Source of the DNA: a bacterium
GTDB taxonomy: Bacteria; Bdellovibrionota_C; UBA2361; CALJRW01
NCBI GenBank assembly: GCA_031385045.1
Contig: JANNBC010000010.1
Location: forward strand, 32,001 to 96,000
DNA: 64,000 nucleotides
Reading direction: 5' to 3'
Part shown: positions 23,865-63,684 of the stretch, piece after piece
Layout of the letters: each line of letters begins with the position of its first letter
Position numbering within the stretch: the stretch's first letter is position 1
Notes under the pieces: generated by a model
Database searches by the model: none
What the model was told of the DNA's origin: nothing
What the model saw: the letters and a program-made list of their open reading frames with translations, nothing else
Program-made: the position numbers and the translations under genes

Positions 23865-26036
23865 ATGAAAACACGTCTTACGCTTCCAATTTATTCCTTA
23901 ACCCTATTATTAAGCGCTTTTTTAATTTTTTCGCTGCAGCCGCTCTTTAGTAAAATGATTTTGCCACTTTTGGGGGGTAGTTCGTCTGTTTGGAATACTG
24001 CCATGGTTTTCTTTCAGGCAGTGCTTTTAATGGGTTATGGGTATGCTCATTTAACAACAACTTACTTAAAACCTAAGCAACAGGTGTTGTTGCACATTTT
24101 ATTATTAATACTCTTTACTATTTTTTTACCCTTAACTGTTGGGGTTAATCCCCAGCCCTCGGCAACCCAACCAATGCTTTGGCAATTAGGTTTAATGTTC
24201 TCAGCAATCGGCGGGCCGTTTTTTATTCTTTCCTCAAGCGCACCACTGCTTCAAAAATGGTTTGCCGCAAGTAATCATAAAAGATCGGCAAATCCATACT
24301 TTTTATATGCAGTGAGTAATGTCGGCAGTATGGGTTCTTTGCTGGCCTATCCTTTTTTATTAGAGCCTTTAACTACTCTAACTCAGCAAAGACACCTTTG
24401 GACTTTTGGTTATGTCAGTTTAATTATTTTAACAATTTTTGCTGCTAGTTTTTTTTGGAAGAGTAATAGTCAGTTAGTAGTAAATGTGAATGTAGGTTCG
24501 AAGCCAACGGTAATACAAGTTATCAGTTGGGTTGGTTATTCTTTTATACCATCTAGTTTGATGTTGGGTTTTACAACATTAATCACTACCGATTTAGCTT
24601 CGGCCCCCTTGTTTTGGGTTGTGCCACTGACAATTTATTTAGGGACTTTTATTATCGCTTTTTCAGAGAAGAAATTAATTAGTGATGACTTTTTGAGACG
24701 CTTGGCGGTCTATGCACTTTCATTTGTGGTGTTGTTCTTTATAACAAACTTAGATCTACCTAAGCTCTTTATGGTTGCTGTGTATTTAATAATATTTTTT
24801 ATTACTGCCCAGTATTGTCATTCGCGTTTGGCAGCTAGATCTCCTAGTTTAAAATATTTAACAACATATTATTTCTATATTTCACTTGGTGGTGTTTTAG
24901 GTGGAATTTTTAATGCTCTGATTGCACCTAATTTATTTGTAATTCCAGCAGAGCTTTGCTTGCCATTAATTGCTATTGTCTGGAGTTTGTTAACAAAGGA
25001 AGACTGGAAGAAGTTTAATTCCTTGAAGATTGGATTAAGAATTGCTTTGTTATTAGTTGCCCCAGTATTCTGTGGCTATGCCTTCTGTTCTACGGATCTT
25101 AGTATTCGTTTAGCTAGTGGGTTCCTGATTCTATTTTTTTTAACATTTGCCACAAGGTATTTGGTTGTTTTTGCTTGGACAATTTTCCTATCCTTAATTT
25201 TATTTCCACCAATTGGCTGGAGCTTTAATCAAAGCGTCATTTTTCGTGCTCGTAATTATTTTGGTATTTTAACAGTTAAAGATTTACCAGCAATTAGATC
25301 TTTTACTCATGGCATCACTTTGCATGGGGCTCAGCCAAAGCTAGCGCAATTTAGGTTATCACCAATTACTTATTATAGCTCTTCTGGGCCAATCGGGGAT
25401 GTCTTTCGTTCCTTGGAGCAAAGTGCACTGCCTCAGCAAATTGGAGTTCTTGGCTTAGGTGTGGGAAGTGTTGCTTGCTATCAAAAGCCAGAACGGAGTT
25501 TTGATTTTTATGAGATAGATCCTGAGGTAATTAACATTGCCGAAGATCCAAATTATTTTACTTACCTTAAAGATTGTGGCAGCCCTTATAAAATATTTTT
25601 AGGTGATGCCCGGCTCAAGATTGTGGAGGCCGATTCTCGGAAGTATGATCTAATCTTAGTTGATGCTTTTAGCTCAGATAATATCCCAGTCCATATTATG
25701 ACCAAAGAAGCATTTCAACTCTATCTTGAAAAATTAAAGGATGATGGACTTATTGCTATGAATATTTCTAATCGTTATCTAGATCTGAGACCTGTGCTTG
25801 CAAGTATTGCTAAGGAGCTGGGCTTAGAGATGCGGATTAAGATAGATCGTAAAGATCTCCCTTTGGATCCAGGAATTCCTTATCATAAGAGTATCTACGT
25901 AGTCTTTACTAAGTCAGCAGAACGAATGGCAAAATTTACACCATATTTACAATGGAAACCTTATCAAGGTGATTTGCCACTCGCATGGACAGATGATTAT
26001 GCCAATATTTTAGGAGCGTTTGGGCAGGTTCACTAA
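23865..26036 (+). CDS. Fused membrane domain / spermidine-synthase-like SAM-dependent transferase
   Basis: LPLLGGSSSVWNT..FFQ, NPYFLYAVSN.GS, HGITLHG, GLGVGS, YEIDP, GDAR, DAFSSDNIPVH, WTDDY. Confidence 0.85.
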   Translation: MKTRLTLPIYSLTLLLSAFLIFSLQPLFSKMILPLLGGSSSVWNTAMVFFQAVLLMGYGYAHLTTTYLKPKQQVLLHILLLILFTIFLPLTVGVNPQPSATQPMLWQLGLMFSAIGGPFFILSSSAPLLQKWFAASNHKRSANPYFLYAVSNVGSMGSLLAYPFLLEPLTTLTQQRHLWTFGYVSLIILTIFAASFFWKSNSQLVVNVNVGSKPTVIQVISWVGYSFIPSSLMLGFTTLITTDLASAPLFWVVPLTIYLGTFIIAFSEKKLISDDFLRRLAVYALSFVVLFFITNLDLPKLFMVAVYLIIFFITAQYCHSRLAARSPSLKYLTTYYFYISLGGVLGGIFNALIAPNLFVIPAELCLPLIAIVWSLLTKEDWKKFNSLKIGLRIALLLVAPVFCGYAFCSTDLSIRLASGFLILFFLTFATRYLVVFAWTIFLSLILFPPIGWSFNQSVIFRARNYFGILTVKDLPAIRSFTHGITLHGAQPKLAQFRLSPITYYSSSGPIGDVFRSLEQSALPQQIGVLGLGVGSVACYQKPERSFDFYEIDPEVINIAEDPNYFTYLKDCGSPYKIFLGDARLKIVEADSRKYDLILVDAFSSDNIPVHIMTKEAFQLYLEKLKDDGLIAMNISNRYLDLRPVLASIAKELGLEMRIKIDRKDLPLDPGIPYHKSIYVVFTKSAERMAKFTPYLQWKPYQGDLPLAWTDDYANILGAFGQVH

Positions 26037-28388: not shown

Positions 28389-28475
28389 CGAAGGTTATAT
28401 ATACAAAAATTAAAACTTAATTTAATTTACTTAAAAATACGCTTAACTACTAGGCTTAATTTTTGTTTTTGAAGT

Positions 28476-28688
28476 TATACTAAGCGACATTGAAAATTAC
28501 CAAAAATATAAAGGCGTTTAGTATATTAAATGCAAAGCACTTGAAGCGACCCTTGGGGTCGCTAAGGTACTCAGCCTTATTTTATAAGGCTGAGTACTAG
28601 GGAAGACGAATATACTAAAACCCAAAACACTGAAAAATCTATTAGATTTTTCCAAGCTGTTAGTAAAAAACCAATGGGTTTTAGTATA
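28476..28688. mobile_element. 213-bp composite palindromic element: two TATACTAA...TTAGTATA units plus two internal hairpins
   Basis: Unit A 28476-28525; unit B 28611-28688 with a 14-bp perfect IR; hairpins at 28545-28563 (8 bp) and 28567-28597 (14 bp perfect). Confidence 0.65.
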
Positions 28689-35090: not shown

Positions 35091-37279
35091 TTAGATTTAA
35101 TTTGAAAAATTGAATTTGGATTTAGAATCACTAGTATTTTTTGTTTCCTATTTAATGAGTGATAGAAATCTTGCAGTAGCTTTTCCATTGATCGATTCTC
35201 AGGATTAGCTTTCGCGGCATAGATGATTTGATTTAAAACTTTAGCTAGTTCTTGATCGACAACAGGAAAAGAGTTTTGAATTCGAATTAAATAATCCAGT
35301 TTTGTTTCTCCCGATCTAATTGGATAGCCTAAGTCTTGAAGCATTAGGCATAAGGTACGGTAGATTTTTTTTAGCTTATCTTCTGAGTTGCCTGAAAGTT
35401 TCCAGCTAAGTAATAAATATATTTTAATGAGATAGAAGATTAGCAAAATTAGGGAAATGATTAGAAGCACCTTTTTGATTTGAAGATATCCCAATAGTGT
35501 TTCAAAGGTTTTCGATTCTTTTAATTCTGGGTCTAACAATTCATCGTTAATAATTTCTTCGTCGTTACCTAGTGAGTCAATTAAATTATCTAGTAGGCTT
35601 TGATCGACGGGAGTTTCTGCATGGCTCTCAACTTGTTTTGGTTGAGTGTCAAAGGGAACCCAGCCAATTGTATCAATGTAAACTTCAGCCCAAGCATGTC
35701 TGTCACTCATTCGCAGCAAGATATGACCATCCTTTGCTTGACTAAAGTCGGTCATATAGCCAGTCCCAATTCGACTGGGGATTCCTAAGGCGCGAAGTAA
35801 ATAAACTGTGGCATGAGCAAAGTGCACGCAATAGCCACGAAGATCTCCAAATAGAAACTGGGCAGTTGGGTCCTGATCTTTAGTGGTCTCATGATTCGGA
35901 GTTAAGGTATAGATGGCATTGTTATTTAAATAATTAAGTATACTAAGAACCATATCTAAGCGATTGACGGCATTGGTAGTTAGTTTCTCAGCTAGTTCTT
36001 GGTAGCGAGGATCGGCATGCTTTTCTGTATAATGCTCCCAGGTTTTTGAGTCCCAATCTTTTGCCCCGAGTTGTAGTTCTTTAACTTGTTCCACATTGTA
36101 GGTCGGAGCTAAGGAAGTTACTTTATAGGCACCTTTGAAGTTATGATCTTTGTTTTGTAAGCGAAGTGGTCGGATTGTTTTTGGATAATCTAAACCAAAA
36201 GCGAGTTGGTGATCTCCCAGTAAATAAATTTTCTGAACTACTTCTTGGCGGGCACTAGCATTATCTAGTTCAACTTTTCTAACATATGTTTGATATGTTG
36301 AGGTGCGGGGAACATCTAGATCGTATTCTTGGTTTGCAAGTACTAACTCATTTTTTTTAAGCTGGGAGAGTGCTGACTCACGCAAGTACATCATTGGCGA
36401 ATGAGGGTTTAGCAAATAGTCATTTTCTAATCGCACCAAAGCTGCTGGTTGATTAGAGCCTCCTAGGGCAGAATAAAAGTTTAGCGGGCTAACCCCAGAT
36501 TCATTGGAGCTTCCAACTCCATTTTGAACAGCAATTTCGTATTTGCCTTGATGTACATTAAATACGGCATAGGTAATAAGCAGAAAAAAGCCAATGATCA
36601 AAGCAATGCTTCCGAGGTTAAAAAACTTAAAGCGTCGCTCTGTGCGAATTTGGTTAAAGACTAAGTTGGTTTCTTTTTTTTCAATGGAGAGGTTGCCTAG
36701 TAAAAATAGATAAGCAATTAATAAGCTGATTACAGCAAATCCAATCCCTGTAATGATACCTAGTGGTGGAGCGCTTAGTTGCCAAGCAAGGTCATTAACT
36801 ATTTTAATTAAATCAAAGCGATAGTTTTGATGTAAAGAGAAGAAAGTTAAGCAGGCTACTAAGATTAGAAAAACTTCTGCCGTTGCGTAGCTTTTGATCC
36901 TTAAGATTAGGTAGGCTGACCAAAGATTAATGATAAAAATTAAAGCTAGAAGATCTAAATGAGTAAAGATATTAATAAATAAAAATAGGTTAGAACTTGG
37001 TGCTAAAAAATTTAGCAAGTAAAAGCAAAGTTGGTAGGCAATAATTGCTAGAATAGAGATAGTTCCTAATGCTAGTAGCTTCAAGCCTTTTTCTGCAAAG
37101 ATAAATCCAAGCGAAACACCTAGTAAAGAGATTGGTATTACTAAGAATAGGCTGGTATCTAGATTGACAATCTGATTGGTGGCCAGGAGGATGACGCTAA
37201 TTAGTAAGAAGCGTAGGGTAATTAGGAAAATTAACTTTTGATTAAACATATTTACTGATAATTTTATCTGCCCCAGCAA
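35087..37279 (-). CDS. Membrane-anchored transglutaminase-like protein (TgpA-like); start probably at ATG 37249
   Basis: N-terminal TM bundle; catalytic triad motifs GYCVHFA, HAWAEVY, GWVPFD. Confidence 0.88.
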   Translation of the reverse strand: MLGQIKLSVNMFNQKLIFLITLRFLLISVILLATNQIVNLDTSLFLVIPISLLGVSLGFIFAEKGLKLLALGTISILAIIAYQLCFYLLNFLAPSSNLFLFINIFTHLDLLALIFIINLWSAYLILRIKSYATAEVFLILVACLTFFSLHQNYRFDLIKIVNDLAWQLSAPPLGIITGIGFAVISLLIAYLFLLGNLSIEKKETNLVFNQIRTERRFKFFNLGSIALIIGFFLLITYAVFNVHQGKYEIAVQNGVGSSNESGVSPLNFYSALGGSNQPAALVRLENDYLLNPHSPMMYLRESALSQLKKNELVLANQEYDLDVPRTSTYQTYVRKVELDNASARQEVVQKIYLLGDHQLAFGLDYPKTIRPLRLQNKDHNFKGAYKVTSLAPTYNVEQVKELQLGAKDWDSKTWEHYTEKHADPRYQELAEKLTTNAVNRLDMVLSILNYLNNNAIYTLTPNHETTKDQDPTAQFLFGDLRGYCVHFAHATVYLLRALGIPSRIGTGYMTDFSQAKDGHILLRMSDRHAWAEVYIDTIGWVPFDTQPKQVESHAETPVDQSLLDNLIDSLGNDEEIINDELLDPELKESKTFETLLGYLQIKKVLLIISLILLIFYLIKIYLLLSWKLSGNSEDKLKKIYRTLCLMLQDLGYPIRSGETKLDYLIRIQNSFPVVDQELAKVLNQIIYAAKANPENRSMEKLLQDFYHSLNRKQKILVILNPNSIFQIKSK

Positions 37280-38426
37280 TGTAAGAGATTTTAGATTTGT
37301 AAAATAGAAATTTATTCAAAGGAGATATTGGTATTATTGATTTTTTAGAAGTCATAATTAGCACTTTAACGTTTTTAGATTTGCAAAGTGCTAGTAATGC
37401 TTTGCTAATAGGGTTGTTTTCCATCATAAAAACAGCAATTTCTAGGCAACTATGATCTTTGCCCAGTAGCTGCGTAAATTTTATTTTATTCTTTTCCCAG
37501 CTTTGCGGTTCTGCTGACCAGATGTTTGCTAGCAGCAGATCTTTTGCTGCCTCTAAATCGTTTAATGCTGCTGGGTACTTGCCAGAAGAGTCAAAAATAA
37601 ATTCTAAATCTTTCTTCTGGATTTGTTCTAAATAGTTTAGGCAATGACGAGCCAGTTCCGGTTCTTCTTTGCCCGCAAACAAAAAGACAAGAGACTTGCC
37701 TGCTGGCAGGGCTGTATCTTCCGGGTGACGGGCAATTAATTCTTGACTCCGAGCAAAAATCTTCCAGACTATTTTACTAATTCCGTCGCTTGGATGATAT
37801 TTTTTTAAGTCGTAATAATCTCCTAGTTTTTTTTGTGGAATATTAATCCTGTCGCCCGCCGTTAAGCTGGAAAAAACTAATGGTAGTTCTGGTGTAAAGA
37901 GTCTCGGTGGTTCCACTCGAATGGCAGGATAGTCTTGTGGAGTTTGAGTACTAGTAATAGTTGCTAGGTTAAAAAGATCGCTTACTGTAAATTGTATATT
38001 TGCTAATTGCCAGTCGCCATGATGTGGAAAATTTACTTGATACTCAGTGCTAAGTTCTAATTCTTTTGTTTTTAAAACTAGTAGGGGCGGTGAAAATTTA
38101 GAATTTTGAAAATTAAGTTTGATTTTTACCTGACATAAGGGAAAGATTTGTAGATTTTTAATTTTTAACTCTAGATAGGCTGGTCGATCTAGGTATTGAG
38201 TGGCTGTCTTATTTTTTCTAGCTAATTGCAAGTCGAGTTTTCGTTTTAGGATTACAAAGTTTACGATGACGATAGTTGTAATAATTAGAACTAAACCAAT
38301 CAATGAATAAGCAAAAATTGTTGCTAAGAGATCTGTTTTGGCAATTAGGCTTAGACAGTAGCCACTTGCTAAAAGTAAGATTAGGGCATTTAGAGTTAGC
38401 GGAAATAAACGACGGATATTTTTCAT
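37242..38426 (-). CDS. DUF58 domain protein
   Basis: Two N-terminal TM helices; GDYYDLKKYHPSDGISKIVWKIFAR; in an operon with MoxR and transglutaminase. Confidence 0.85.
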   Translation of the reverse strand: MKNIRRLFPLTLNALILLLASGYCLSLIAKTDLLATIFAYSLIGLVLIITTIVIVNFVILKRKLDLQLARKNKTATQYLDRPAYLELKIKNLQIFPLCQVKIKLNFQNSKFSPPLLVLKTKELELSTEYQVNFPHHGDWQLANIQFTVSDLFNLATITSTQTPQDYPAIRVEPPRLFTPELPLVFSSLTAGDRINIPQKKLGDYYDLKKYHPSDGISKIVWKIFARSQELIARHPEDTALPAGKSLVFLFAGKEEPELARHCLNYLEQIQKKDLEFIFDSSGKYPAALNDLEAAKDLLLANIWSAEPQSWEKNKIKFTQLLGKDHSCLEIAVFMMENNPISKALLALCKSKNVKVLIMTSKKSIIPISPLNKFLFYKSKISYIAGADKIISKYV

Positions 38427-38439
38427 TGATAAGAGATAT

Positions 38440-38584
38440 TATAATAAGTCCCAAAAGTAATTTCCGTTAGGAATTACTTTTGGAACTTATTATCCCCCAG
38501 AGGGATTATAAAATCATATAGTTATGACAAAAATCACTAAACTAACTTTTCATTATTCGGAAATTACTTTTTGTCATAACTATA
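38440..38584. mobile_element. 145-bp structured repeat, MITE-like, copy 1
   Basis: About 92% identical to 63542-63684; TATA termini; imperfect 27-bp TIRs; three internal hairpins. Confidence 0.8.
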
Positions 38585-38629
38585 TAGGAGTTCTATTATT
38601 TCCGAAATAGAGACGTGAATGAGGAGTTC

Positions 38630-39715
38630 TTAATTTAAAGCCAGGTCTGGGTTTTTGACAACTTCTGCAAGCAGATTGATAAATTGTTTACGTGCCAGAG
38701 AGTCTGCCATCCACATGTGTGGACCATCAATTAACTTTTCTTGAACATTATAGACAAAAGCTGTTCGTTCAACCTCGTTCTTGGAGATTGTAAAATCATT
38801 TTTAGTGCCAACAACTGTAATTGGAACTCCACTAGCTTTTACTTGTTCTGGATTGATTGGCATCATTGCTTGAACATTTGCCAAGAAGCTCTCTGGGGAA
38901 AGCTTGCAACCTTTTGGTACGTTTTCTGGGGTAGTTGAGAAAAGGACTTTAGCAGCAACACGCTCATTTTTCATAGCAGTCGTGGCATTAAAAGTTATAT
39001 TAGCTTTTATAAAATCCCAAGGGCTTTGTAGGGCGAAGCGCAGGTTCGCCATCAACATTCCAGCTGGTGGAACTGAGGCTAGTAAAGTAGCGGAAGCAAT
39101 GTTTGCAGAACTTTTAGAGGCAAGATATTTTTGAACCAAATATCCGCCAAAGGAGTGACCTACTAGATGAATCTTAGTAATTCCGCTAGCCTCTAAGCTT
39201 TTAATTACAGTCTCAAGGTTTTTTAAATAGCGAGTTAAGGAGAAGTTAATCTTGGGGCTATTAAGAGAGGCCTCTGTCTTTGACTGATTATTATCCTTGC
39301 TTCTACCATGACCTTCTTGGCTAAACGCAAAGCTATTAATTCCTTGAGCCGCTAATTCTTTCATCGCTGGAAAATTCATTGTGGCAGTTGACCAGAATCC
39401 GGGAACAAATAAAACGGCAGTGTCTTTCTTGACCTCTGGGCCTAGAGCTTTGACTTGAATTACATGGAGTGCAGTTTTATTTTCGGTTTCAATAAAGCCG
39501 TGTGATGGTTCATAATTAAGTTTTCGAGATGGTGGAAGGGAGTCAGTTGTTAAATCGTAAAGTTTGGCTCCTAATCTGTTAGTGACTAATGGTTTTGCCT
39601 CTTTAGACACAACTGAGCCAACTGCATTGGCAGATGGTATTCTTAAAATGTCTTTTACTGTCGAGACCATTATCCCTTTATTCTTTAGATGTTCTATAGT
39701 AGACCGAAGATGCAC
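38630..39715 (-). CDS. Alpha/beta-fold hydrolase
   Basis: LFVPGFW, GHGRS, nucleophile elbow GHSFGG, Asp in KND, His in GPHM; start uncertain. Confidence 0.85.
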   Translation of the reverse strand: MHLRSTIEHLKNKGIMVSTVKDILRIPSANAVGSVVSKEAKPLVTNRLGAKLYDLTTDSLPPSRKLNYEPSHGFIETENKTALHVIQVKALGPEVKKDTAVLFVPGFWSTATMNFPAMKELAAQGINSFAFSQEGHGRSKDNNQSKTEASLNSPKINFSLTRYLKNLETVIKSLEASGITKIHLVGHSFGGYLVQKYLASKSSANIASATLLASVPPAGMLMANLRFALQSPWDFIKANITFNATTAMKNERVAAKVLFSTTPENVPKGCKLSPESFLANVQAMMPINPEQVKASGVPITVVGTKNDFTISKNEVERTAFVYNVQEKLIDGPHMWMADSLARKQFINLLAEVVKNPDLALN

Positions 39716-39771: not shown

Positions 39772-40572
39772 TTGATTAATTTCGATAAAAACTCCTTCCA
39801 GCACTGTTTTGTAGATTGGCATGTGCATTTCTATCCAAATTATGACTATGCTCGAGCTATTGGAGCTGTTTTTAGTAAGCTTAAAGAGTATCGTAAGCAA
39901 GTTGCCGTAGAAAGTGGGGCGCTAGCAATTTTAGTTCTAACGGAACGGGACGATTGTACTTTTTATGGAGACTTAGCCAGTTATTTCATAGACTTAGGCC
40001 CTGCTTTTAAAATAAGCAAATTAGATCTTGGTGTGTTGATCTATAATGCCGAAGATTCGCTAGTAATTTTCCCTGGTCGGCAGATTAATACTAAGGAGCG
40101 AGTGGAGTTACTAAGTCTAGGTAGTGATCACTTGATTCCCTCAGGCTTAGATTTAGCAACTACCCTGCAAAAAATCATTGCTGGTTCGGGGCTTCCCGTC
40201 ATTAATTGGGCACCTGGGAAATGGTTATTCACTAGAGGTCGTTTGATTAAAAAGTTAATCCTAAATTCTAAGGGTAATCTATTTCTTTGTGATACCAGCC
40301 TTCGTCCTAAATACTTTCCTAGACCAAGCTTAATGCGCTTAGCCGAGTCTAGGGGCATTCCTGTGATTAATGGTTCTGATCCCTTGCCCCATGAAGATGA
40401 GCAGGGGCTAATCTTTTCATACCTTGCCTATTATCAGGTGGAGTTTAATCTAGCAGAGCCCTTAGAAAGTTTTAAAAAATTAATTATCCAAAAACCTCAG
40501 CAACTCTTAGGTGCGAGGTCCTCACTTTGGCAATTATTTCAAAGACTAAAACGTTATAAATCTAAAAGTTAA
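39772..40572 (+). CDS. PHP-like metal-binding hypothetical protein
   Basis: VDWHVH near the N-terminus, LTER, GRQI, GSDPLP. Confidence 0.55.
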   Translation: MINFDKNSFQHCFVDWHVHFYPNYDYARAIGAVFSKLKEYRKQVAVESGALAILVLTERDDCTFYGDLASYFIDLGPAFKISKLDLGVLIYNAEDSLVIFPGRQINTKERVELLSLGSDHLIPSGLDLATTLQKIIAGSGLPVINWAPGKWLFTRGRLIKKLILNSKGNLFLCDTSLRPKYFPRPSLMRLAESRGIPVINGSDPLPHEDEQGLIFSYLAYYQVEFNLAEPLESFKKLIIQKPQQLLGARSSLWQLFQRLKRYKSKS

Positions 40573-41612: not shown

Positions 41613-42517
41613 TCTAATTCTAAAACCTGCTCTTTTTTCTTTTCAGCTCGGGAGACTAATCCTGAAGTAATAATTACAATTAGTGCTCCAATAATCTGCC
41701 AGAAGCCTAGTCTTTCTCCAAAAAAGACCCAAGCAATCGGGACAGCAATTAATGGACCAGTTGCTCTAAGGGCAGAAGACTTCCAGCCATCTAGTCCTTG
41801 AAGGGAAGCGTAGAGCAGAGGAATTGCAATTACATAAAACATGATCGCGTGAATTCCAATATATCCCCAACCTGCTAAGTGATCCGCCGTGAAAATTAGC
41901 GGACAGAAAAATAATGCCAGTGGTGCCGTTAGTAGACCTCCAGCAGTCTCAGTAATTGTTGATGTTTGAACTGGGGTTAAGAATTTAGTCACTTGCGGTG
42001 CATAACGATAGGAAAGACCTGCCGTGATTACAGCTATAATAATAATTAAGTCTCCAAAATCCACACCACTAACCATAGTTACTTCTCCCATAGACAGTAA
42101 AGCTGCTCCAAGAATATGAATAACTAATAAAAGTAAATGCTTATTGGAGGGTCGTTTTCCATCTAAAACCCAGACCCAGAAAATTACTAAGTAGGGTTCC
42201 ATTTTTGTCAGGATTACTGCTTTAATTCCTGAGCTCATGGAAAGTCCAATTGTAAATAAAATATTAGAAACAACCGGTCGGCAAAGAGTTAGTTTGCAGA
42301 GAGGGATGATTACTTGGCGAATATTTTGCCATTTAGGAATTTGTTTCCGAATAATTAAATAACTCCAAGAGATAATACCTGCAAATAAAACACCAACTGT
42401 TGCCGCTAGGACTGGATCGATCACGGCAACCCCTTGTACCTTAAACAAGGTCGAAGTGCTGGAGAGGCAACTAGAGAGAATTGCAAATAGAATATATCGA
42501 GATGAATTTTGAGACAT
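41609..42517 (-). CDS. DMT/EamA family transporter
   Basis: About ten TM segments, FFGERL; ATG at 42517 overlaps the upstream TAA (TAATG). Confidence 0.85.
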   Translation of the reverse strand: MSQNSSRYILFAILSSCLSSTSTLFKVQGVAVIDPVLAATVGVLFAGIISWSYLIIRKQIPKWQNIRQVIIPLCKLTLCRPVVSNILFTIGLSMSSGIKAVILTKMEPYLVIFWVWVLDGKRPSNKHLLLLVIHILGAALLSMGEVTMVSGVDFGDLIIIIAVITAGLSYRYAPQVTKFLTPVQTSTITETAGGLLTAPLALFFCPLIFTADHLAGWGYIGIHAIMFYVIAIPLLYASLQGLDGWKSSALRATGPLIAVPIAWVFFGERLGFWQIIGALIVIITSGLVSRAEKKKEQVLELD

Positions 42518-45500
42518 TAGACAAGATGTTTTGCTAAAGAGTCTTTGTTGGGGAGTCGTTCTTTTGAAGAGTTCTTCGGAGTTTGTTTTTTTAGTAGCAG
42601 TTTTTTTGCAAAATAAGAATAACAAATTTTTTTGATACCAGTAAGCTTTTGATTAGTTAGTAAGGGGCGTCCCTCCCTATCTATTTCATCTTCTAAGGCT
42701 ACTTCGGCTATATTCATTTGCATTAGGATTTGCATGAAAAATAATAGTTGTTCATCTTCCCAGCTTTTTTGAGAAGTGAAGACTCTTAAGAAGTTTACTT
42801 TTATAATCCTCATTAGTCTTATTTCGGTTAGCGCTCGTGGTGTTAGCTCTGCTTCTATTTTGTTGTCTGCTAGTATTAAATCTTGTAAATCTGAAATTTC
42901 ATAATTTAGAATTTGTTGAGTGATCTTAAAAATTTCTGTTTTTGATTTATCCCTCAGTGGCTCTAGCGCTGAGAGTAGATCTAGTTTGTCGGCAAGAATC
43001 CGTTTTAAATCTTGCAAATCTCCAAGTAGGGCTAGGATTTCAACTCTTGGCTGTGGGTTGTCAATTTGAGTAGGAGAATTCGGAATAATAATTTCGCTTA
43101 CAGAAATTTTATTTAGAAGTAAGATGGTCTGGAGTAAGATATCTAGTTCTTTTAAGGGAGCTAATGGTTTGTTTAAAGTTAACTCTAGATCTTTTAGAAT
43201 GATTTTTTCTAGAATTTGAATTAAGTCTTCACCTGCTAATTCTGCCGTTAGTAGTTTTTTTAGAACTGGTTCTTCTACTAAAAGTAATTCTAATTTTAGG
43301 ATTAATTCTTCTAGTTTTGGTTCAGTGCTTAATCGCTTTGGTGCCAAGAGCAACTCAGCTTCACTAATTGCAAGTGGAGTGCCACGGATACTAGCTTCTG
43401 GAGAAGCTAATCCCGAGGTAGTTTCTAATATTCTCTGGTAGATAGTTTTTGTTATTATTTCTAAATCTTCTTCTTTGAAGTCGGTAATCTCTTTAGTTTT
43501 ATTAGTATCTAAGGAGTCTTTAATTTCAGTTATTAGCTCCATTAGTAATTTTTTAGGACAACTTTCTAGAAATTCTAATATTCTTTCTGCGTCTTGGAGC
43601 CCATCTTCTGTAATCTTAGGGTCTGGGCAACTCTCAATCAGTAGGATTAAGTTTTGTTTTGCTATCTGAGCTTCTATCGGAATATCTGTCTCTGGTAAAT
43701 TTATTAATGTAGCTAGGGCTTTTGCAAGGTTTGGTAAAAACTCTTCGCTAGCTACTTCAATAATTAAATCACCTTCTGAAGAAATAGTTGTGAGTCGCGT
43801 TGCCAATTCCGAATCGACTATAGTTATTACTTGGTTTGATTGACTTTTTATACTGTCAGGAAGTTGTTCCCCTTTTTCAAAAGCTAGATTTGCTGTAGTA
43901 GATAATTGAGTAGTGCTAAGTTCTAGTAAGTGCTTGGAGTTTAAATCAGGCAAAATCTCTTCCTGCCTATGGATTTCTTGCAGACTATTAATTACAAGCG
44001 AATCATTACCTTGGCGTAAGCCATTTTCAGGATTGTCTGGCAGATGGTTTTCTTTTTCAAGAGTTGGGTTTGCTGTAGTAGATAATTGAGTAGTGCTTAG
44101 TTCCAGAAATTGTTTGGAGTTTAAATCAGGCAAAATCTCTTCCTGCCTTTGTATTTCTTGCAGACTATTAATTACAAGCGAATCTTTACCTTGGGGTAAG
44201 TCATTTTCAGGATTGTCTGGCAGATGGTTTTCTTTTTCAAGAGTTAGATTTGCCGTCGTGGGAAGTACAGTTGAGATTTGATCCAGTAGTTGTTGAGAGT
44301 TTGATTCCGGCACTACTTCAGCTCGTCTAATTATTTCTGGTCGGCTATTACTCGCTAGTGGATCGGCGTCTGTTTGATTATTAACCTGGGCATCTCTAGC
44401 ATTTATTAATGATGTAGTTGGAAGTATTGACTGAGTTACAACTACTTCTACTAATTGCTTCAAGTCTGAATCTATTGGTAGCTGTTCCGATTTCACTTTT
44501 TCAAGTAGCTGTCTTTCTTTCTTATTAGAAGGAGGAGGCTCTCCTTCTGAGGGATCTTTTGCTAGATTTAAGGGTGTCGCTTTTTCTGAGGGTAAATCAA
44601 AAAGCGAAGTTGTTGTTCTTAGGGGAATTATTTGTGGGCTGATGAACTCCGGCTCTTTGGTTCTTAGCAACTCTGTTGCGGGCACTTTCAGATCTGCTAC
44701 TTCGCTAATTATTTTTGCTGGTAGTTCTTGTGATGAAGCTAAGGGACTGACGACAGAAGCTTGTGGGGTAATAATAGTTTTAAATTCAATTAAGGGATCA
44801 GATGCTTTTAATTCAAAAACTAAAGGGAGTGCTTCATTAAAATTTATATGCTGATTTGTAGGTGGAACGGCATTAAGGATCTTAGGAGTCTCTGTGTCAT
44901 TTGATGATAGGTCTTGTCGCGCTATGGTTTCATTTGGGAGCATGACAGTTGTTTTTATCTGTAGAGATGGGGAGGTGTCTTCTATTGATAGCGTAGTAGG
45001 TTGAATTTTAGACTTTGGGTTTGTTGGTTCTATTTGTAATTCAGATTTATCCTTAGAGTTGGCGGCCGTAAGACTTTCTGGAGTAATTAGTATTTGTCTT
45101 GACTCTAAAGCTTGAAAGTTGGGACTTTCTTTTGAAGCTACAGGCACTACTTCTTTTTCTGGCTTTTCTAAGTACTTTGTCTCGGATTCTTTCTTTGCTT
45201 GTCCTGAGGTTTTTATTTCACTTGTCGCGATAGATTCGGGAGTATCATTAGCATTTAAGTTAGAAATATTTTTTTCTTTTATCTCAGGTTTACTTTCTTT
45301 TTCAGGGATAGCTATTTCTTTGGTACTCTTAGTAATTTCTCTCTTGGCTGTCTGAGTTGTTCCTTCATTTATTGATTGTTGGGGGGGGGATAATTCTTGT
45401 TGGCGATTAATTGTTGGAAGGGTTGCATCGCTTGGAATTTCTATGGAATAAAATTGAACACTTAATCCCTTGTGACTAGCAACCTCTTGAATTCTTTTTT

Positions 45501-45861
45501 GGGGAATTTGCTCAAAAGATACTGCTAGAATGCCATTTGTTAGAAGTGAGTTATGGTTTTGTAAGCTTAGTTCGGTTAAAATGCCTGTGTCACCGGAGAA
45601 GGCTTCATTGATAATGCGACCCGAGGAATCTTTTTTAAAATTATTTACTAAGCTGTATTTGTCTGAGAAGACTAAAGTTTGCGAGGCGTTCCCTGATTCT
45701 AAGGCTTCTAGTGCCTGAGTAAGTTGAGCTAAATATTCTGGGGGTTCATTTTTATTAACTTCACTAAGCTTTTCTCCAAAGCAGTACCATTCGCCATCAA
45801 TTTTGCGATAATCAATTGTTTCACTACTTGGTGTTTTGGTAGCAATTTCTGGTTCTGGCAT
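42517..45861 (-). CDS. Large acidic low-complexity hypothetical protein with a 60-aa tandem repeat
   Basis: 1114-aa ORF; E/S/T/P-rich middle, L/E-rich helical C-terminus; no signal peptide. Confidence 0.7.
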   Translation of the reverse strand: MPEPEIATKTPSSETIDYRKIDGEWYCFGEKLSEVNKNEPPEYLAQLTQALEALESGNASQTLVFSDKYSLVNNFKKDSSGRIINEAFSGDTGILTELSLQNHNSLLTNGILAVSFEQIPQKRIQEVASHKGLSVQFYSIEIPSDATLPTINRQQELSPPQQSINEGTTQTAKREITKSTKEIAIPEKESKPEIKEKNISNLNANDTPESIATSEIKTSGQAKKESETKYLEKPEKEVVPVASKESPNFQALESRQILITPESLTAANSKDKSELQIEPTNPKSKIQPTTLSIEDTSPSLQIKTTVMLPNETIARQDLSSNDTETPKILNAVPPTNQHINFNEALPLVFELKASDPLIEFKTIITPQASVVSPLASSQELPAKIISEVADLKVPATELLRTKEPEFISPQIIPLRTTTSLFDLPSEKATPLNLAKDPSEGEPPPSNKKERQLLEKVKSEQLPIDSDLKQLVEVVVTQSILPTTSLINARDAQVNNQTDADPLASNSRPEIIRRAEVVPESNSQQLLDQISTVLPTTANLTLEKENHLPDNPENDLPQGKDSLVINSLQEIQRQEEILPDLNSKQFLELSTTQLSTTANPTLEKENHLPDNPENGLRQGNDSLVINSLQEIHRQEEILPDLNSKHLLELSTTQLSTTANLAFEKGEQLPDSIKSQSNQVITIVDSELATRLTTISSEGDLIIEVASEEFLPNLAKALATLINLPETDIPIEAQIAKQNLILLIESCPDPKITEDGLQDAERILEFLESCPKKLLMELITEIKDSLDTNKTKEITDFKEEDLEIITKTIYQRILETTSGLASPEASIRGTPLAISEAELLLAPKRLSTEPKLEELILKLELLLVEEPVLKKLLTAELAGEDLIQILEKIILKDLELTLNKPLAPLKELDILLQTILLLNKISVSEIIIPNSPTQIDNPQPRVEILALLGDLQDLKRILADKLDLLSALEPLRDKSKTEIFKITQQILNYEISDLQDLILADNKIEAELTPRALTEIRLMRIIKVNFLRVFTSQKSWEDEQLLFFMQILMQMNIAEVALEDEIDREGRPLLTNQKLTGIKKICYSYFAKKLLLKKQTPKNSSKERLPNKDSLAKHLV
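43873..44259. repeat. Intragenic tandem repeat, 180-bp period, about 2.1 copies
   Basis: TTAN.TLEKENHLPDNPEN.L.QG.DSLVINSLQEI.RQEEILPDLNSK..LELSTTQLS occurs twice plus a partial third copy; DNA near-identical at offset 180. Confidence 0.92.
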
Positions 45862-46058: not shown

Positions 46059-48392
46059 TTAGTATTTAGGTACAGCTACTGGAAGTAGTTTAGCACTAAT
46101 TAGTTCTGCTCTTCTAGGGCCGTAGTTTTGCGATGAGGCAATAAAATTATTATTACAGGCAACCCGTGCCCTAACTAAGTTGCACTCTCTTGGAGTATTG
46201 CTTTGCTCCACCTGTAAAGGATCGTCAATTTGAAATAGCCAAGGGTTCGGACCAGCAACTGTCTCTTCAATCTCTGGCATTTTAATATCACTAGCAAGCG
46301 ACTGATACTTTAAATGATAGTCGTGAAAATTTGGAAAGTCTAAATCAGGATTAGCGGTTGTGCTTACAGCGGAGCTTGGTGTTGTGTAAGTATAAGAATG
46401 TAATTGTAATGCTGGTGCTACGGGAGGGGTAGGATTAGCTGGCCCAATATCTAAATCAAAAATATCAATATCTACAAATCCTATGATTTGATAAGGAGCG
46501 TCGATATTAATACTTGGTTTTGATTTGTTTCTTCCAATGCAAGGCGAGGCATATTGACCTACTTCGGCAATGATTGGGATTTTAGTTTGCCAGATATTAT
46601 TTAGTTTGTCAGGGTTTTTTGGTTTGGGAGTAACGGTAAAGGATTGTCCAGTATAATCTTTAAATTCATCTTGTTTATTTGGAGTGTATTCGCTTGGCTC
46701 AAAATGTTTTTTTTGTTCATTAAGATCAGTTAAGCAGCCGGCCACATTACTAGCCGTTAGCAGATCTGTTCCATTGCAATCGAGTTTCATTCTTCTTGAT
46801 TGGCATAATCCATTACTAAATTGATCGCGAAGTAATGTTGGATAGCTAATTTGATCTATCTTTGTAGGGTCGTTATTTTCCAGTCTGGCTTCGTTAAAGA
46901 ATATCTTAGCTGGTTTGGTAAATAAATTTGTTGCTAGGTTAATAGGAGGAAGGATATTAACTGGCAGTCTTGTATAGGGAAGTGGCCTGTCAGGTAGTAA
47001 CTCTAAATTTGGAAAGTTGGCTAGACTGGCAAGCCCTAAAGTTCGATTAGAACTCATTGTGATTTCATTCTGCAGAAAATCCAATTTCCCAAAGAAGTAA
47101 GAAGTTTTCGCTTGTTTTTGAGTCATAATATCCCAGATGGCATCCCCACTAATTTTATGGGTTAATCCCTGATGGAAAATATTAAATTCTTGACCAATCA
47201 CTGCCTCTGTTTGATTAAAATAGATTAAATCCATAGCTAGCTGAGATTCGCTGGTAACATTAATCTTAGTTGATCCAACAACGCCATAATGATCGCTGAT
47301 GTGGCTGTAGGCATAATTGCTCCAACCACCAAAGGTTTTATACTCATTACTATAGCTAGAATTGTCCGGATCTAAGCTATAGTTTAATTCTCGCTTAATA
47401 TTACATTCATTAATATCTTTACTACATGGCCCATAGAAAAAAGATGGTCTAACGCCAAATAGATTCTTTTTAAATGCTTCTGATCTTTTCTGTTCAGCAT
47501 CAGCACGATCTTTATATCCGTAATAACTCAGGTAGTCGTTGGCAACTCCATTTTTTGGCTTGATAAATGGACCCACGCCTTCCAAGGCTTCCTCGTAGCT
47601 AACTGAGAATGGTAAGAAGTTTTTTACTGCTGGTAGGTAACGATCTGATCTTGTAAACAATCGATCGCCGTAACAAATATCTGCCGGGTTAAAACTACCT
47701 TCTTCGTTTAGTAAAGCACAGGCTGGAATAGCAAAAGGAGCAATTGGAACGTTATTAATTGGACCAGAGCGAGCTATCGCTTTTGCTTTAATTAATGCTG
47801 AGTTAGAATTTCCAACTTCGAAGCCCACAATGCTACTAATACCTTTAAGTGTCATTTCCACGACTAAAGAATTAATTACTAATTGTGCTGGGATTCCAGG
47901 GTTCTCCTCCTGCCATAGAAGATTCACTTCTTCAAAGTACTGCTTGTCAGTCTCTGGTTTTTCTCGACTAATCCAGCCATGGTAAATTACTACTTCTAGA
48001 TCATTATCTTCAGATATATAGCTCGTACGATTCGTTTTAGATTGCGGATTAACAGGTGGTAGAACTTTTAATGAGATTTGATGATAGCCTTTGTTATGTA
48101 AACTAAAGTTATGACCAATTGTTGTTAGCGCCGCCTTATAGGCATTTTCTAGGCAGGCATCTTCTGGGCAAAGTTGTTGAGTGCCAGCAATTGCCGCTGC
48201 TTCAGCAATTGATTGGAGCTGAGTATAGGCCGCTAGGCGAGCATTGTTAAAATATAAATATCCAACTGTAGATAGAACTAAGAGAATACTTACTGCCATC
48301 CAGATAAAAAAGCTACCTGATTCATCTTGAGTTCTGATTTGTAGCAAGACACCACTATGATTATTTAAATTATTTTGATAATGGGCAATCAT
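46059..48392 (-). CDS. TadG-like pseudopilin with a large Cys-containing C-terminal domain
   Basis: ESG-SFFIWMAV hydrophobic N-terminus, QLQSIAEAAAIAG, AKAIA, IAPFAIPAC, IIGFV. Confidence 0.7.
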   Translation of the reverse strand: MIAHYQNNLNNHSGVLLQIRTQDESGSFFIWMAVSILLVLSTVGYLYFNNARLAAYTQLQSIAEAAAIAGTQQLCPEDACLENAYKAALTTIGHNFSLHNKGYHQISLKVLPPVNPQSKTNRTSYISEDNDLEVVIYHGWISREKPETDKQYFEEVNLLWQEENPGIPAQLVINSLVVEMTLKGISSIVGFEVGNSNSALIKAKAIARSGPINNVPIAPFAIPACALLNEEGSFNPADICYGDRLFTRSDRYLPAVKNFLPFSVSYEEALEGVGPFIKPKNGVANDYLSYYGYKDRADAEQKRSEAFKKNLFGVRPSFFYGPCSKDINECNIKRELNYSLDPDNSSYSNEYKTFGGWSNYAYSHISDHYGVVGSTKINVTSESQLAMDLIYFNQTEAVIGQEFNIFHQGLTHKISGDAIWDIMTQKQAKTSYFFGKLDFLQNEITMSSNRTLGLASLANFPNLELLPDRPLPYTRLPVNILPPINLATNLFTKPAKIFFNEARLENNDPTKIDQISYPTLLRDQFSNGLCQSRRMKLDCNGTDLLTASNVAGCLTDLNEQKKHFEPSEYTPNKQDEFKDYTGQSFTVTPKPKNPDKLNNIWQTKIPIIAEVGQYASPCIGRNKSKPSINIDAPYQIIGFVDIDIFDLDIGPANPTPPVAPALQLHSYTYTTPSSAVSTTANPDLDFPNFHDYHLKYQSLASDIKMPEIEETVAGPNPWLFQIDDPLQVEQSNTPRECNLVRARVACNNNFIASSQNYGPRRAELISAKLLPVAVPKY

Positions 48393-48918
48393 GGTAATTT
48401 TTTGGTTCTAAAGTCATAATTCGAAAATATTCTTTGTTATGAATACAGAGAAAGTCAGTCAGGCCAAATGTTAAGGCTCCTATCGTGCAATTAATTTTAA
48501 CATTCACAGTAAATGTGAGTAGCACATTCTCTTTTGGGAACTTTGAGGCGATATTATCATCATCAAAATTTCTTAAGCTAGTTTGCCTTGGGATACAGAT
48601 CCGGGCAGTGAATGGAAGAATCTCAGGGCTGACTTCAGTGGTGTGGACTTGAAAATTATTAAGGATATTTTCCCATTTAATTTTTAATTGATCGGCTTCA
48701 ATCAACTTCCCATTTATGTCGACCATCGGTAATAACTCCCCAGTTGCTACGTCTAAAAGCAATTCTTCTGTTACATAATTAATCGATGCTTTATCAATAA
48801 AAATCAAACTAAGCTGAATTGTTGTAAACAAGACACTAGCAAAAATTGGAAAGATCAAAGCGAACTCAATAAAAGCAGCGCCCTTGATGGAATTAGTTTT
48901 GCTTAAGTCCTGGAACAT
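48370..48918 (-). CDS. TadE-like pseudopilin
   Basis: Prepilin motif KG-AAFIEFALIFP. Confidence 0.8.
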   Translation of the reverse strand: MFQDLSKTNSIKGAAFIEFALIFPIFASVLFTTIQLSLIFIDKASINYVTEELLLDVATGELLPMVDINGKLIEADQLKIKWENILNNFQVHTTEVSPEILPFTARICIPRQTSLRNFDDDNIASKFPKENVLLTFTVNVKINCTIGALTFGLTDFLCIHNKEYFRIMTLEPKNYHDCPLSK

Positions 48919-49622
48919 TATGTACGCTCACAAAAAGTATTACTGGCGGCAATGCTTTCTGCTACTGGTTTCCATTGATAAGGAGTATAGCCAGTCATTC
49001 TTGGGCATCCCTCGGAACTATTTATACCTCCAGGTTTTAATGGATTTGAGGGGCTCAGTGTTTTAGCTGTATTAAATTTACCCACAAGATCGTCTCGGTC
49101 AAAGCTTGTTGGAATTGGTGTGAGGAGTGTCTGGCAATTTTTATTTGAGCCAGAGATCCCTAGGATGGAGGTTGGCTCTTTGAGTTTAATACCCATCCAG
49201 ACATAGCCGGTGATTATTTGAAAATTATTTTGAGCAGTACTGCCGATTGCATCGGCATAAAGGTCAACTTTAATAGTATAATCATCGAGGTTTAAGTTTG
49301 AATCGCTTAATTTTAGAAAGTCTTTAATTAGTTTCTTTATCTGACTATCCTCTGAGTTGGTATCTTGTGTTAGGTCTTTTAGGGTGTCCTCGTCATCTGG
49401 AAGAAATTCAATGTTTTGTAGTGTGTCATCGTTGCTACAACTTGATGCTTCGCTAATTCCAACAGCCGTTTGCTGAAGAATTCGGCTTAAATCGGCATTT
49501 TTCTTTAAATATCCAGAAAATTCGATAATTCCAAAGGTTGCTAGGATTAGAAAGGAGGTTGCAACAACCCCCTCAATCATTACACCGCCAAATTCTGAAA
49601 GGTTTCCTTTTGATTTAAACAC
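48918..49622 (-). CDS. TadE/TadF-like pseudopilin
   Basis: FG-GVMIEGVVATSFLILATFGIIEF prepilin-like motif; coupled to the next gene. Confidence 0.7.
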   Translation of the reverse strand: MFKSKGNLSEFGGVMIEGVVATSFLILATFGIIEFSGYLKKNADLSRILQQTAVGISEASSCSNDDTLQNIEFLPDDEDTLKDLTQDTNSEDSQIKKLIKDFLKLSDSNLNLDDYTIKVDLYADAIGSTAQNNFQIITGYVWMGIKLKEPTSILGISGSNKNCQTLLTPIPTSFDRDDLVGKFNTAKTLSPSNPLKPGGINSSEGCPRMTGYTPYQWKPVAESIAASNTFCERT

Positions 49623-49772
49623 AGTTAATATTGTAGAATTCTATAGTGATAAGGATCATAAATTATTTCTTATTTTTACTATATCACTTACATAAAGGTA
49701 AGATGATATTTAGATGCACCAAAATCCAATTCGGCTTTTGATACGTGTCGACTGTTTTTTAAAGAATGTTTA

Positions 49773-54408: not shown

Positions 54409-55764
54409 ATGACAAAAAAAATAATCCTCATTTCAATCTTTATTCTGCTAGTTGCGGGGGTATCCTTTTATCTGATGGGTGCTAATAAGAATCTGACAGT
54501 TAGTCCAGTTGCTGCAAGCTCCGAGTCTGATTTTGTTCTACCAGCAACAGATAATATCGTCTTCTTAGTGATAGATACTTTGCGGGCGGATCACTTACCT
54601 TTTTATGGTTATAATGTTGATACAGCTCCATTTTTATCGGAGTTAGCCGCAAAATCAATTGTATTTGAAAATGCCTTTTCTGCTAGCTCCACCACAGCTC
54701 CTTCCATGGCCTCAGTTTTTACTTCTGTCTATCCGTCTCAACATGGAGTGTTGATGGGGATGCAAGCAACCAAGCGTTTGAAGCAACAGTTAGATGAGCC
54801 GTATCAGGATCTTTCGATTAATAAAATTCCAGCAGAGTTATTAACCTTAGGTGAGATGATGAAGCAGTCTGGATTTAAGACTTATGGTGTTGCTGATAAT
54901 TTAAATATTGATCATCAAATTGGCTATATCGAAGGCTTTGATAAATTTAAAACTTTTCAATACGAGGGAGCTGCCAATTTAAATAATGTTGCCATGGAAT
55001 ATTATCCCGATCTACAAAATTCCAAACATTTTTTATACTTGCACTATATGGATCCGCATATTCCATATCATCAGCGCGAGCCTTGGTTTGATAAAAATCA
55101 CCCCAATCCTAAAATTGCTGCCTATGATAGTGAAATCCGTTATGCCGATGAGCATATTAAAAAAATCTTTGAGCAGTACAATGTTTTAGAAAACTCCTTA
55201 GTAGTTTTTCTATCTGATCATGGTGAAGAGCTGGGAGATCATGGTGATTATGGTCATGGTAGAAATCTTTATCCAGAAGTTATTCGCGTTCCCTTATTTG
55301 TTTATCATCGCAACTTAAAACCAGCGCGAGTTAAACAGCCAGTGTCAACAATTGATGTTTTACCGACCTTAGCTAAGGTTACTAAAATGGAAGCACAGCC
55401 TTATTGGGAAGGGGAATCACTAACCACCTATTTTAATGATCATGATTTTGTTAAGCCCCGCACGACATTCTCCCAATTATTAGGCCCTAAAGAGTATGTG
55501 CGAGAATTGTTTATGGCAGCGCATGATCAAGATCATTGGTTATACATTGACGCAATTAGTCAGGAGCGCAAAGAGTTATTTCATCTTTCCGAAGATCCAC
55601 TTGCTTTGGAAGATTTATTATTAGCTTATCCTAATAAATCAACTGAGCTTTCTTCGGAGCTTGAGGTTCTCTCCAAGAAGAGCCCAATCAGCGCACCAGA
55701 AAAAGTCGATATTAAGATGAATAAAAAGACAGTCAATAAATTAAAAACTTTAGGATATTTCTAA
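54409..55764 (+). CDS. Exported sulfatase-like hydrolase/transferase (alkaline phosphatase superfamily, Thr at the nucleophile position)
   Basis: N-terminal anchor; IDTLRADHL, STTAPSMAS, HYMDPH, SDHGE, C-terminal LKTLGYF. Confidence 0.88.
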   Translation: MTKKIILISIFILLVAGVSFYLMGANKNLTVSPVAASSESDFVLPATDNIVFLVIDTLRADHLPFYGYNVDTAPFLSELAAKSIVFENAFSASSTTAPSMASVFTSVYPSQHGVLMGMQATKRLKQQLDEPYQDLSINKIPAELLTLGEMMKQSGFKTYGVADNLNIDHQIGYIEGFDKFKTFQYEGAANLNNVAMEYYPDLQNSKHFLYLHYMDPHIPYHQREPWFDKNHPNPKIAAYDSEIRYADEHIKKIFEQYNVLENSLVVFLSDHGEELGDHGDYGHGRNLYPEVIRVPLFVYHRNLKPARVKQPVSTIDVLPTLAKVTKMEAQPYWEGESLTTYFNDHDFVKPRTTFSQLLGPKEYVRELFMAAHDQDHWLYIDAISQERKELFHLSEDPLALEDLLLAYPNKSTELSSELEVLSKKSPISAPEKVDIKMNKKTVNKLKTLGYF

Positions 55765-63541: not shown

Positions 63542-63684
63542 TATAGTAACTCCAAAAAGTAATTTCCGTTAGGAATTGCTTTTGGAGTTACTATCCCCCG
63601 GAGGGATAATAAAATCATATAGTTATGACAAAATCACTAAACTAACTTTTGATTATTCGGAAATTACTTTTTGTCATAACTATA
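63542..63684. mobile_element. 143-bp structured repeat, MITE-like, copy 2
   Basis: Same orientation as 38440-38584; differs by 9 substitutions and 2 single-base gaps. Confidence 0.8.

Follow-up and report, generated by a model that had tools for sequence, protein, structure and literature searches.

Two copies of a noncoding element of about 145 bp lie 25 kb apart in the window, the 64,000-nucleotide stretch of DNA analyzed here, and they differ at positions where both partners of a base pair have changed together. The locus thus raises the question of what kind of element this is and what produced the matched changes. A sequence-only reading of the window had inferred that structure was kept by selection or by arm-to-arm conversion, and had proposed either an undescribed MITE family or a structured RNA or single-stranded DNA (ssDNA) switch. 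The account that we judge probable as a whole is a MITE with 27-bp terminal inverted repeats (TIRs), a TA duplication, probable mobilization in trans by IS630, inner copies of its own ends, and matched changes introduced by template switching. Under this account, an IS630-family transposase would cut the noncoding MITE and paste it in trans into TA, and the inverted inner copies are predicted to fold each end back on itself. One arm would template the other during replication (template switching), yielding matched base changes, and copies with inner arms would spread or persist better, hence the retention of the arms.

A global alignment of copy 1 (38440-38584, 145 bp) and copy 2 (63542-63684, 143 bp) contains 134 identities in 145 columns (92.4%), in agreement with the earlier estimate of about 92%. 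The two copies, their parts, and their neighbors are as follows.

38440..38584, + strand: MITE copy 1; the span includes the TA duplicate at either end
37242-38426, - strand: neighboring open reading frame (ORF) of copy 1, no Pfam match; the element lies 13 bp upstream of its start
38630-39715, - strand: neighboring alpha/beta hydrolase ORF of copy 1; the element lies downstream
38440..38466, + strand: terminal inverted repeat A (end A) of copy 1, 27 bp with the TA, PWM score 33.0
38444 and 38452: private changes in end A of copy 1, placed on the tree tip of this copy
38470..38493, + strand: inner inverted copy of end A in copy 1 (3' arm of hairpin 1), without the terminal TA
38492..38506, + strand: small G+C-rich middle hairpin of copy 1, replaced or expanded in other length classes
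38507..38515, + strand: A-rich unpaired linker of copy 1, as conserved as the stems
38516..38533, + strand: copy 1, inner repeat of the 17-18 outermost bases of end B (5' arm of hairpin 3)
38558..38584, - strand: terminal inverted repeat B (end B) of copy 1, PWM score 38.5
63542..63684, + strand: MITE copy 2, both TAs included
62025-63458, - strand: neighboring sulfatase ORF of copy 2; on the other side, a + strand gene runs off the window
63542..63568, + strand: terminal inverted repeat A of copy 2, with a private G-to-C change at 63550
63572..63594, + strand: inner inverted copy of end A in copy 2; the bulged G is lost and the partner of 63550 is changed (63587)
63617..63633, + strand: copy 2, inner repeat of the outer portion of end B
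63658..63684, - strand: terminal inverted repeat B of copy 2

All of the local structure described in the sequence-only reading is present. Hairpin 1 pairs ATAATAAGT with ACTTATTAT in copy 1 and ATAGTAACT with AGTTACTAT in copy 2, where an A-to-G change gives a T-G pair; the middle hairpin lies beyond it, and copy 1 carries an 18-bp perfect inverted repeat (38516-38533/38568-38585). With the family consensus as the reference, each double change is private to one window copy: a G-C pair became A-T in copy 1, and a G-C pair became C-G in copy 2. At positions 38484 and 38485 other copies have G, and at 38490 they have C. Folding z-scores are -7.15 for copy 1 and -8.51 for copy 2, and for neither copy did any of 200 shuffles reach the same stability. 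For copy 1, contigs of an independent run (X2, from a different study than the best-matching run, X1) agree with 38364-38525 and 38528-38615 at every letter, so the odd arms of this copy are no assembly artifact. No join that skips copy 1 was listed for four DNA runs, whose contigs attest presence and not absence, and the locus of neither window copy yielded an ancestral state. No link of the element to a tRNA or tmRNA was found on the contig of the window, and a promoter scan returned 1 site against 1.2 expected.

The genome of the window, G000 (2.83 Mb, 36.8% G+C, 94.9% complete, 61 contigs), was compared with G001 from the same genus, G002 from the same family, and G032 from another family of the order. 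The BLASTN search of the genome and its relatives suggested in the earlier reading revealed a dispersed family. The 145-bp class has 15 matches in G000, 12 of them full (143-147 bp), and 70 full copies among 90 matches in the 84 loci taken from G001, where an internal motif matches 134 times (about two thirds of these matches were sampled as loci). Together, the full copies form the 82-copy set used below; partial or contig-end-cut matches (3/15 in G000 and 20/90 in G001) were left out. A matrix of the 27-bp end (consensus TATAGTAATTCCAAAAAGTAATTTCCG) finds 92 ends at ≥20 bits in G000, against 0, 0, and 0 for three column-shuffled matrices, and the end pattern matches 260 times in G001 and 91 times in G002, with 0 matches for reversed controls. 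The two terminal repeats of an element agree at 21/27 positions in copy 1 and 23/27 in copy 2. Paired ends in G000 define length classes of about 55-65, 145, 165-198, 235-270, and 253 bp.

The family is narrowly distributed. By blastn, copy 1 has matches in 3 of 41 genomes (G000, G001, and G002), all of the same family. The exact end pattern occurs at 45 loci across 185,579 genomes, 44 of them from two genomes; by title, 12 loci belong to a "Bdellovibrionota bacterium" MAG, 32 to an "uncultured bacterium" MAG, and 1 to a short Firmicutes contig, which has one end only and no clear partner end. Plasmid records contain no match, and phage records contain one weak match (E value of 3e-3). Rfam gives 0 matches in the window at the gathering threshold. 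Relaxing the search to E≤1 yields 7 Rfam matches, all far below threshold, the best being mir-548 (27.9 bits against 90). The available text of PMC1784062 derives mir-548 from a MITE; the match is curious given that origin and is no evidence of membership. A literature search, mostly of open texts, returned neither an account of the family nor a description of IS630 MITEs in which the two ends fold back. A MITE family absent from the collections searched is thus supported, by the lack of an Rfam match together with the TA duplication and IS630-like ends described below.

Several irregular loci were recorded alongside the full copies. The window itself holds a lone degenerate end at 49683 (- strand; G000 C17:81683; 19.9 bits), partnerless within 2.5 kb and located upstream of ORF 48918-49622. 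A copy of the 145-bp class at G000 C54:208740-209095 is split by an element of ~210 bp with short inverted ends of its own and what looks like a duplication of 8 bp; from G000 C5:5916 onward, a lone end is followed by an insert resembling it. Copies that lack end A and break off at close to one position within inner arm A occur at G000 C31:27949 and C54:121350 and at G001 loci L095, L102, L114, and L116.

The mobility of the element is seen in comparisons between relatives. The genes that flank copy 1 keep their synteny in G001, which lacks the element and has a single TA at the point where the two flanks meet; the site of copy 2 is likewise empty in G001 with one TA at the junction. The search for empty sites proposed earlier thus returned a single TA at both window sites (2/2), which indicates that TA is duplicated on insertion. 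In the reverse comparison, 32 of 67 G001 copies with long flanks have both flanks syntenic in G000, and 31 of these 32 G000 intervals are without any family end listed by the matrix, most junctions being too diverged to read. Among the full copies, 68/82 start and end with TA.

A candidate source of the transposase is encoded by G002. A complete element of ~1.17 kb in this genome has identical 27-bp ends and a 344-amino-acid ORF that scores 205.9 bits on the NCBIfam model NF033545 (IS630 family transposase; cut-off of 100). Of 27 positions, its end shares 20 with end A of copy 1, 23 with end B of copy 1, 22 with end A of copy 2, and 23 with end B of copy 2, and its subterminal bases at the two ends are similar to those of MITE ends B and A. 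Among the loci taken, 7 different left flanks and 3 different right flanks were counted for this element. A transposase 70% identical to that of G002, with a related right end, is present in G001, and metagenome contig L189 encodes a 50%-identical transposase with a similar end. No IS630 transposase was detected in the 61 contigs of the 94.9% complete G000 (0 DDE_3 matches; tblastn without a hit at E≤1), which means that the partner has been lost from this genome, is missing from the assembly, or is a different one. For ISY100, a member of the IS630 family, the available text of PMC2170065 describes a transposase that alone excises the element and inserts it into TA with duplication, 30 bp of each end being sufficient. 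We are highly confident that the element is an IS630-type MITE. It has likely been moved in trans by an IS630-type transposase, for which the G002 enzyme is a candidate, its ends being similar but not identical.

Three loci juxtapose MITE and IS630 sequences. At L013 (G002 C77), a 155-bp MITE adjoins a broken IS630 gene; at L166, a MITE end abuts an IS630 end, the TA being common to both; and at L196 (G032 C144:8980-9834), MITE-type ends enclose the remnant of an IS630 transposase in an 855-bp element that appears to be an IS-to-MITE intermediate. Two other mobile systems were considered. REP/RAYT or IS200/IS605 mobility was set aside on account of the TIRs and TA duplication. IS110 targeting of this MITE family was dismissed because the IS110 end present at 9 contig termini opens with the end motif of another TA-bounded repeat, the second family described below; these termini are the G000 ends of C3, C5, C9, C33, C35, C46, C48, C51, and C54.

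The build of the element is distinctive. Its order is end A, inverted inner A, small G+C-rich hairpin, A-rich linker, inner B, and end B. Inner A is without the terminal TA, and inner B keeps the TA but, in this subfamily, is without the inner part of the end (GTAATTTCCG in copy 1). The sequence-only reading had noted that the outer ends pair with each other and that the element might fold alternatively as a rod. The pairing is real and corresponds to the TIR; the rod is far less stable on the + strand. In the 145-bp class, the local fold beats the end-to-end rod in 78/82 copies (+ strand) by a median of 13 kcal/mol. Folded as RNA, the + strand of copy 1 gives -26.1 kcal/mol for the rod and -45.1 for the local fold, that of copy 2 gives -35.3 and -49.3, and the expected number of end-to-end pairs is 0.0 in both. 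Only on the - strand of copy 2 do the two folds come within 0.6 kcal/mol (rod, -44.4; local, -45.0). An RNAalifold consensus of 51 copies is weak (-11.2) and has the same two outer hairpins.

Inner copies extend beyond the 145-bp class. All 25 longer G000 elements inspected by eye have inner copies of their own end variants, with local end hairpins in the minimum-energy fold of 21/25 and rod-type folds in 4/25. In G002, classes of 150-158 bp likewise have inner copies and local end hairpins and several longer elements are rods, and the autonomous IS630 has no fold-back copy beside its ends. A related MITE family in G032 has 128 ends; 15 of its 16 paired elements fold as rods with only short inner complements and one folds locally; 18/34 loci have no partner end within 450 bp. 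Minimal single-hairpin elements of 55-69 bp and TA-sharing tandem copies also exist, which suggests that the four-repeat build may have begun as two adjacent minimal hairpin elements moving as one unit; some minimal elements could equally be deletions between internal direct repeats.

Two further features of repeat architecture were observed. A second TA-bounded family of ~200 bp in G000, represented in the window at 28469-28669 (C17:60469-60669) and at no fewer than 14 other sites, has ends of the TATACTAAAACC and TATACTA[AG]GCG types and the same build: its two ends fold back on themselves, and between them lie three hairpins and a linker like that of the MITE. The hairpin tips of the longer G000 and G002 classes contain short G+C-rich palindromes with a GCTAAAGC-type core, which make up much of the length variation and are like REP-type inserts.

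The covariation test proposed in the sequence-only reading was carried out by tree and parsimony over the 82 full copies and 37 stem pairs. It counted 9 same-branch double changes that keep Watson-Crick pairing, 5 nonpairing doubles, 12 restorations, and 187 one-sided breaks (50 to G-T, 33 to A-C, and 104 other). The 14 same-branch doubles exceed a null mean of 5.9 (P=0.0004), and slid controls yield 1 to 3 pair-keeping doubles against the 9 observed. Covariation is above chance, yet most changes break pairs, and pair-keeping doubles are a minority (9 against 187 breaks).

The window copies are extreme cases in the family. In both, the consensus bulge and wobble were removed together with the private change. 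In copy 1, a single edit separates the outer part of inner arm A from the reverse complement of end A in the same copy, against 4 edits from the consensus arm; in copy 2, the corresponding figures are 1 and 3. The G000 copy on C6 resembles the window copies in that substitutions, the lost bulge, and the fixed wobble occur together. The reverse direction is represented by copy L100 of the family, whose end A was overwritten by the complement of the inner arm, with a C added and the terminal TA removed; transposition cannot have favored this change. A base was also gained in copy L071. In subfamily A, 4 of the 17 copies with at least 4 outer-stem changes have arms that differ by no more than 2 edits, where random change would give 0.001-0.004 per copy.

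Multibase homogenization of the arms is therefore observed in both directions, and it bears out the conversion half of the earlier inference. According to the available portions of PMC5941160 and PMC8794818, template switching homogenizes the arms of short inverted repeats and generates multibase compensatory changes. We consider it quite probable that the double changes of the window copies were made in this way; stepwise mutation plus selection may be an alternative for single pairs. Conversion is infrequent, since the consensus retains the bulge and the wobble.

The same counts can be read as selection, which forms the first of three alternatives to the template-switching account. Here, the paired arms of an IS630-type MITE would be kept by selection on the element, and the double changes would be selected, with template switching only an optional source. 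The proposed benefits, which are tentative, are that the inner copies serve as extra transposase-binding sites or that they block an ssDNA rod and thereby reduce deletion or nuclease cutting. In subfamily A (56 copies), changes on internal and tip branches number 13 and 98 in the inner arms, which is similar to the true ends (26 and 154; P=0.60) and comprises fewer internal changes than in the loops (42 and 105; P=0.001). Subfamily B (n=26) shows no significant difference, the unpaired linker is conserved equally, and hypermutable loops and intercopy recombination inflate internal counts in a parsimony analysis of 146-bp sequences. Pair-keeping changes are commoner on internal branches (9/36 against 12/172; P=0.003), and the excess of doubles over the slid controls and the null is also in line with selection. 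The build recurs in every length class of the family in three genomes and in the second TA-bounded family with its different ends, but the G032 relatives reached their 128 ends although nearly all of their paired elements are plain rods.

Rates on the tips qualify this picture. Inner arm A has 3.41 tip changes per site, the ends 3.11, and loop 3 3.00, with lower values for inner arm B and the linker; at A/T sites, inner arm B has 1.07 changes per site against 3.95 in loop 3. The data fit some constraint on the inner arms in the lineages that spread, not clearly one acting after insertion. Neutral conversion alone does not account for inner arms that vary less than the loops on internal branches, or for the enrichment of pair-keeping changes on those branches. 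It is conceivable, though we hold it doubtful, that hairpin-ended IS630 MITEs are a recurrent subclass in which inner copies are selected and template switching keeps them in step with a drifting transposase recognition. Selection on the inner arms for spread remains, in our assessment, distinctly less probable than template switching as the source of the double changes.

A second alternative is co-option by the host as a structured RNA, in which the elements would act as terminators, RNase III sites, or mRNA stabilizers, as is reported for Correia elements, and covariation would reflect selection on the transcript. The host-level structured RNA implied in the earlier reading fares poorly against the counts, as one-sided breaks (187) far outnumber pair-keeping doubles (9) and restorations (12), and on tips the decay of inner arm A keeps pace with that of the ends and of loop 3. 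A slight excess of G-T over A-C on the + strand (50 against 33; P=0.08) would favor a transcript, but this excess may be mutational because A-to-G changes also outnumber T-to-C changes outside the long stems, in the loops, linker, and middle hairpin (36 against 14). The A-rich linker on one strand, one terminator-like match in hairpin 1 of copy 1, and the location of copy 1 between two co-oriented genes are compatible with an RNA role. Against it, orientation relative to flanking genes is unbiased (35 against 33 in G001, from rough gene calls by hexamer score), tandem orientation counts are 12 against 18, 1 against 6, and 7 against 3 (all P>0.1), and insertion sites are not common to relatives. 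We regard this alternative as improbable. The third, a two-state RNA or ssDNA switch between local hairpins and the rod, can draw on the near-equal folds of the copy 2 - strand and on the rod-type folds of 4/25 longer G000 and several long G002 elements, but it is very improbable and the earlier suggestion of such a switch is not supported, since the rod is not populated on the + strand, local folds win in nearly all copies, and any MITE requires end-to-end complementarity, which calls for no further explanation.

With the IS630-type MITE as the preferred reading, the element can be placed among described repeats. Every testable defining feature fits a TA/IS630-type MITE, whereas the end-to-end stem-loop, which is typical but not defining, is not the favored fold. 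RUP of Streptococcus pneumoniae and Correia/NEMIS of Neisseria are TA-type MITEs, and RUP is attributed to IS630-Spn1 (PMC2229807, in the text available). Like these, the present element is 100-200 bp long, A+T-rich, noncoding, and intergenic, with TIRs, a TA duplication, and IS630-like ends (PMC2229807; PMC10969869; available portions of both). Compared by description, it differs from them in its inner end copies and in its prevailing local hairpins, where the accessible part of PMC2229807 describes pairing of the 5' and 3' ends, and in its host lineage.

The overall shape is closer to that of CIR1-4 of Caulobacter and Brucella (~110 bp), which, by the description in the available text of the same review (PMC2229807), share the TA termini and two independently folding arms with a linker. 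As characterized there, CIR elements are without TIRs, have a GANTC motif and an alphaproteobacterial host, and are of unknown target duplication and mobility (PMC2229807). The present element, in contrast, has TIRs, a TA duplication, a candidate IS630 partner, and related loci titled Bdellovibrionota, and neither the window copies nor the consensus contains GANTC, although some variants have GAGTC in end A. The bcr1 repeats of the Bacillus cereus group (~155 bp) are likewise mobile at nonconserved positions, with a multiarm fold, compensatory changes, and loss of structure in some copies; the sections available of PMC3184786 report 5-bp direct repeats, a cruciform that keeps a long stem, and transcription, whereas the family described here has a TA duplication and IS630-like ends.

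Comparison with insertion sequences and with mutational systems is also informative. ISY100 and other IS630 insertion sequences similarly have imperfect TIRs of about 24-27 bp and a TA duplication, and the ends of ISY100 alone suffice (PMC2170065, as far as its text is available). The MITE differs in having no transposase gene, and the G002 IS630 differs in having no fold-back copies. Quasi-palindrome template-switch mutation produces, according to the portions available of PMC5941160 and PMC8794818, the same multibase matching of arms in either direction and the same apparent compensation in one step; here, unlike in those cases, it occurs in a mobile family in which one arm is a transposon end, and the reverse event destroys that end (L100). 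The class of element is known, with CIR and bcr1 as partial precedents for the build, and what is unusual is the inverted inner copy of each terminal repeat in this family.

The family provides a clean natural data set of compensatory changes by arm-to-arm copying in both directions and a warning for covariation-based RNA discovery in repeats. In it, a two-armed fold of the CIR type also occurs together with a TA duplication and a candidate IS630 partner, which makes the movement of two-armed repeats testable. The constrained-looking inner arms of spreading lineages hint at an unexplained cis feature for MITE amplification. If the inner copies were selected, CIR-like repeats would gain a mobility mechanism, and covariation in repeats would be possible without an RNA function.

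Other genes of the window were noted in passing. Between 52648 and 64000, sulfatase genes (54409-55764 and 62025-63458) lie beside sulfate-activation genes, which encode a PAPS-reductase domain (61128-62021) and a GTPase plus APS-kinase fusion (59201-61126). Among the 15 ORFs scanned, 6 long ones have no Pfam match at E≤0.001 (37242-38426, 39772-40572, 42517-45861, 46059-48392, 23865-26036, and 57448-59196).
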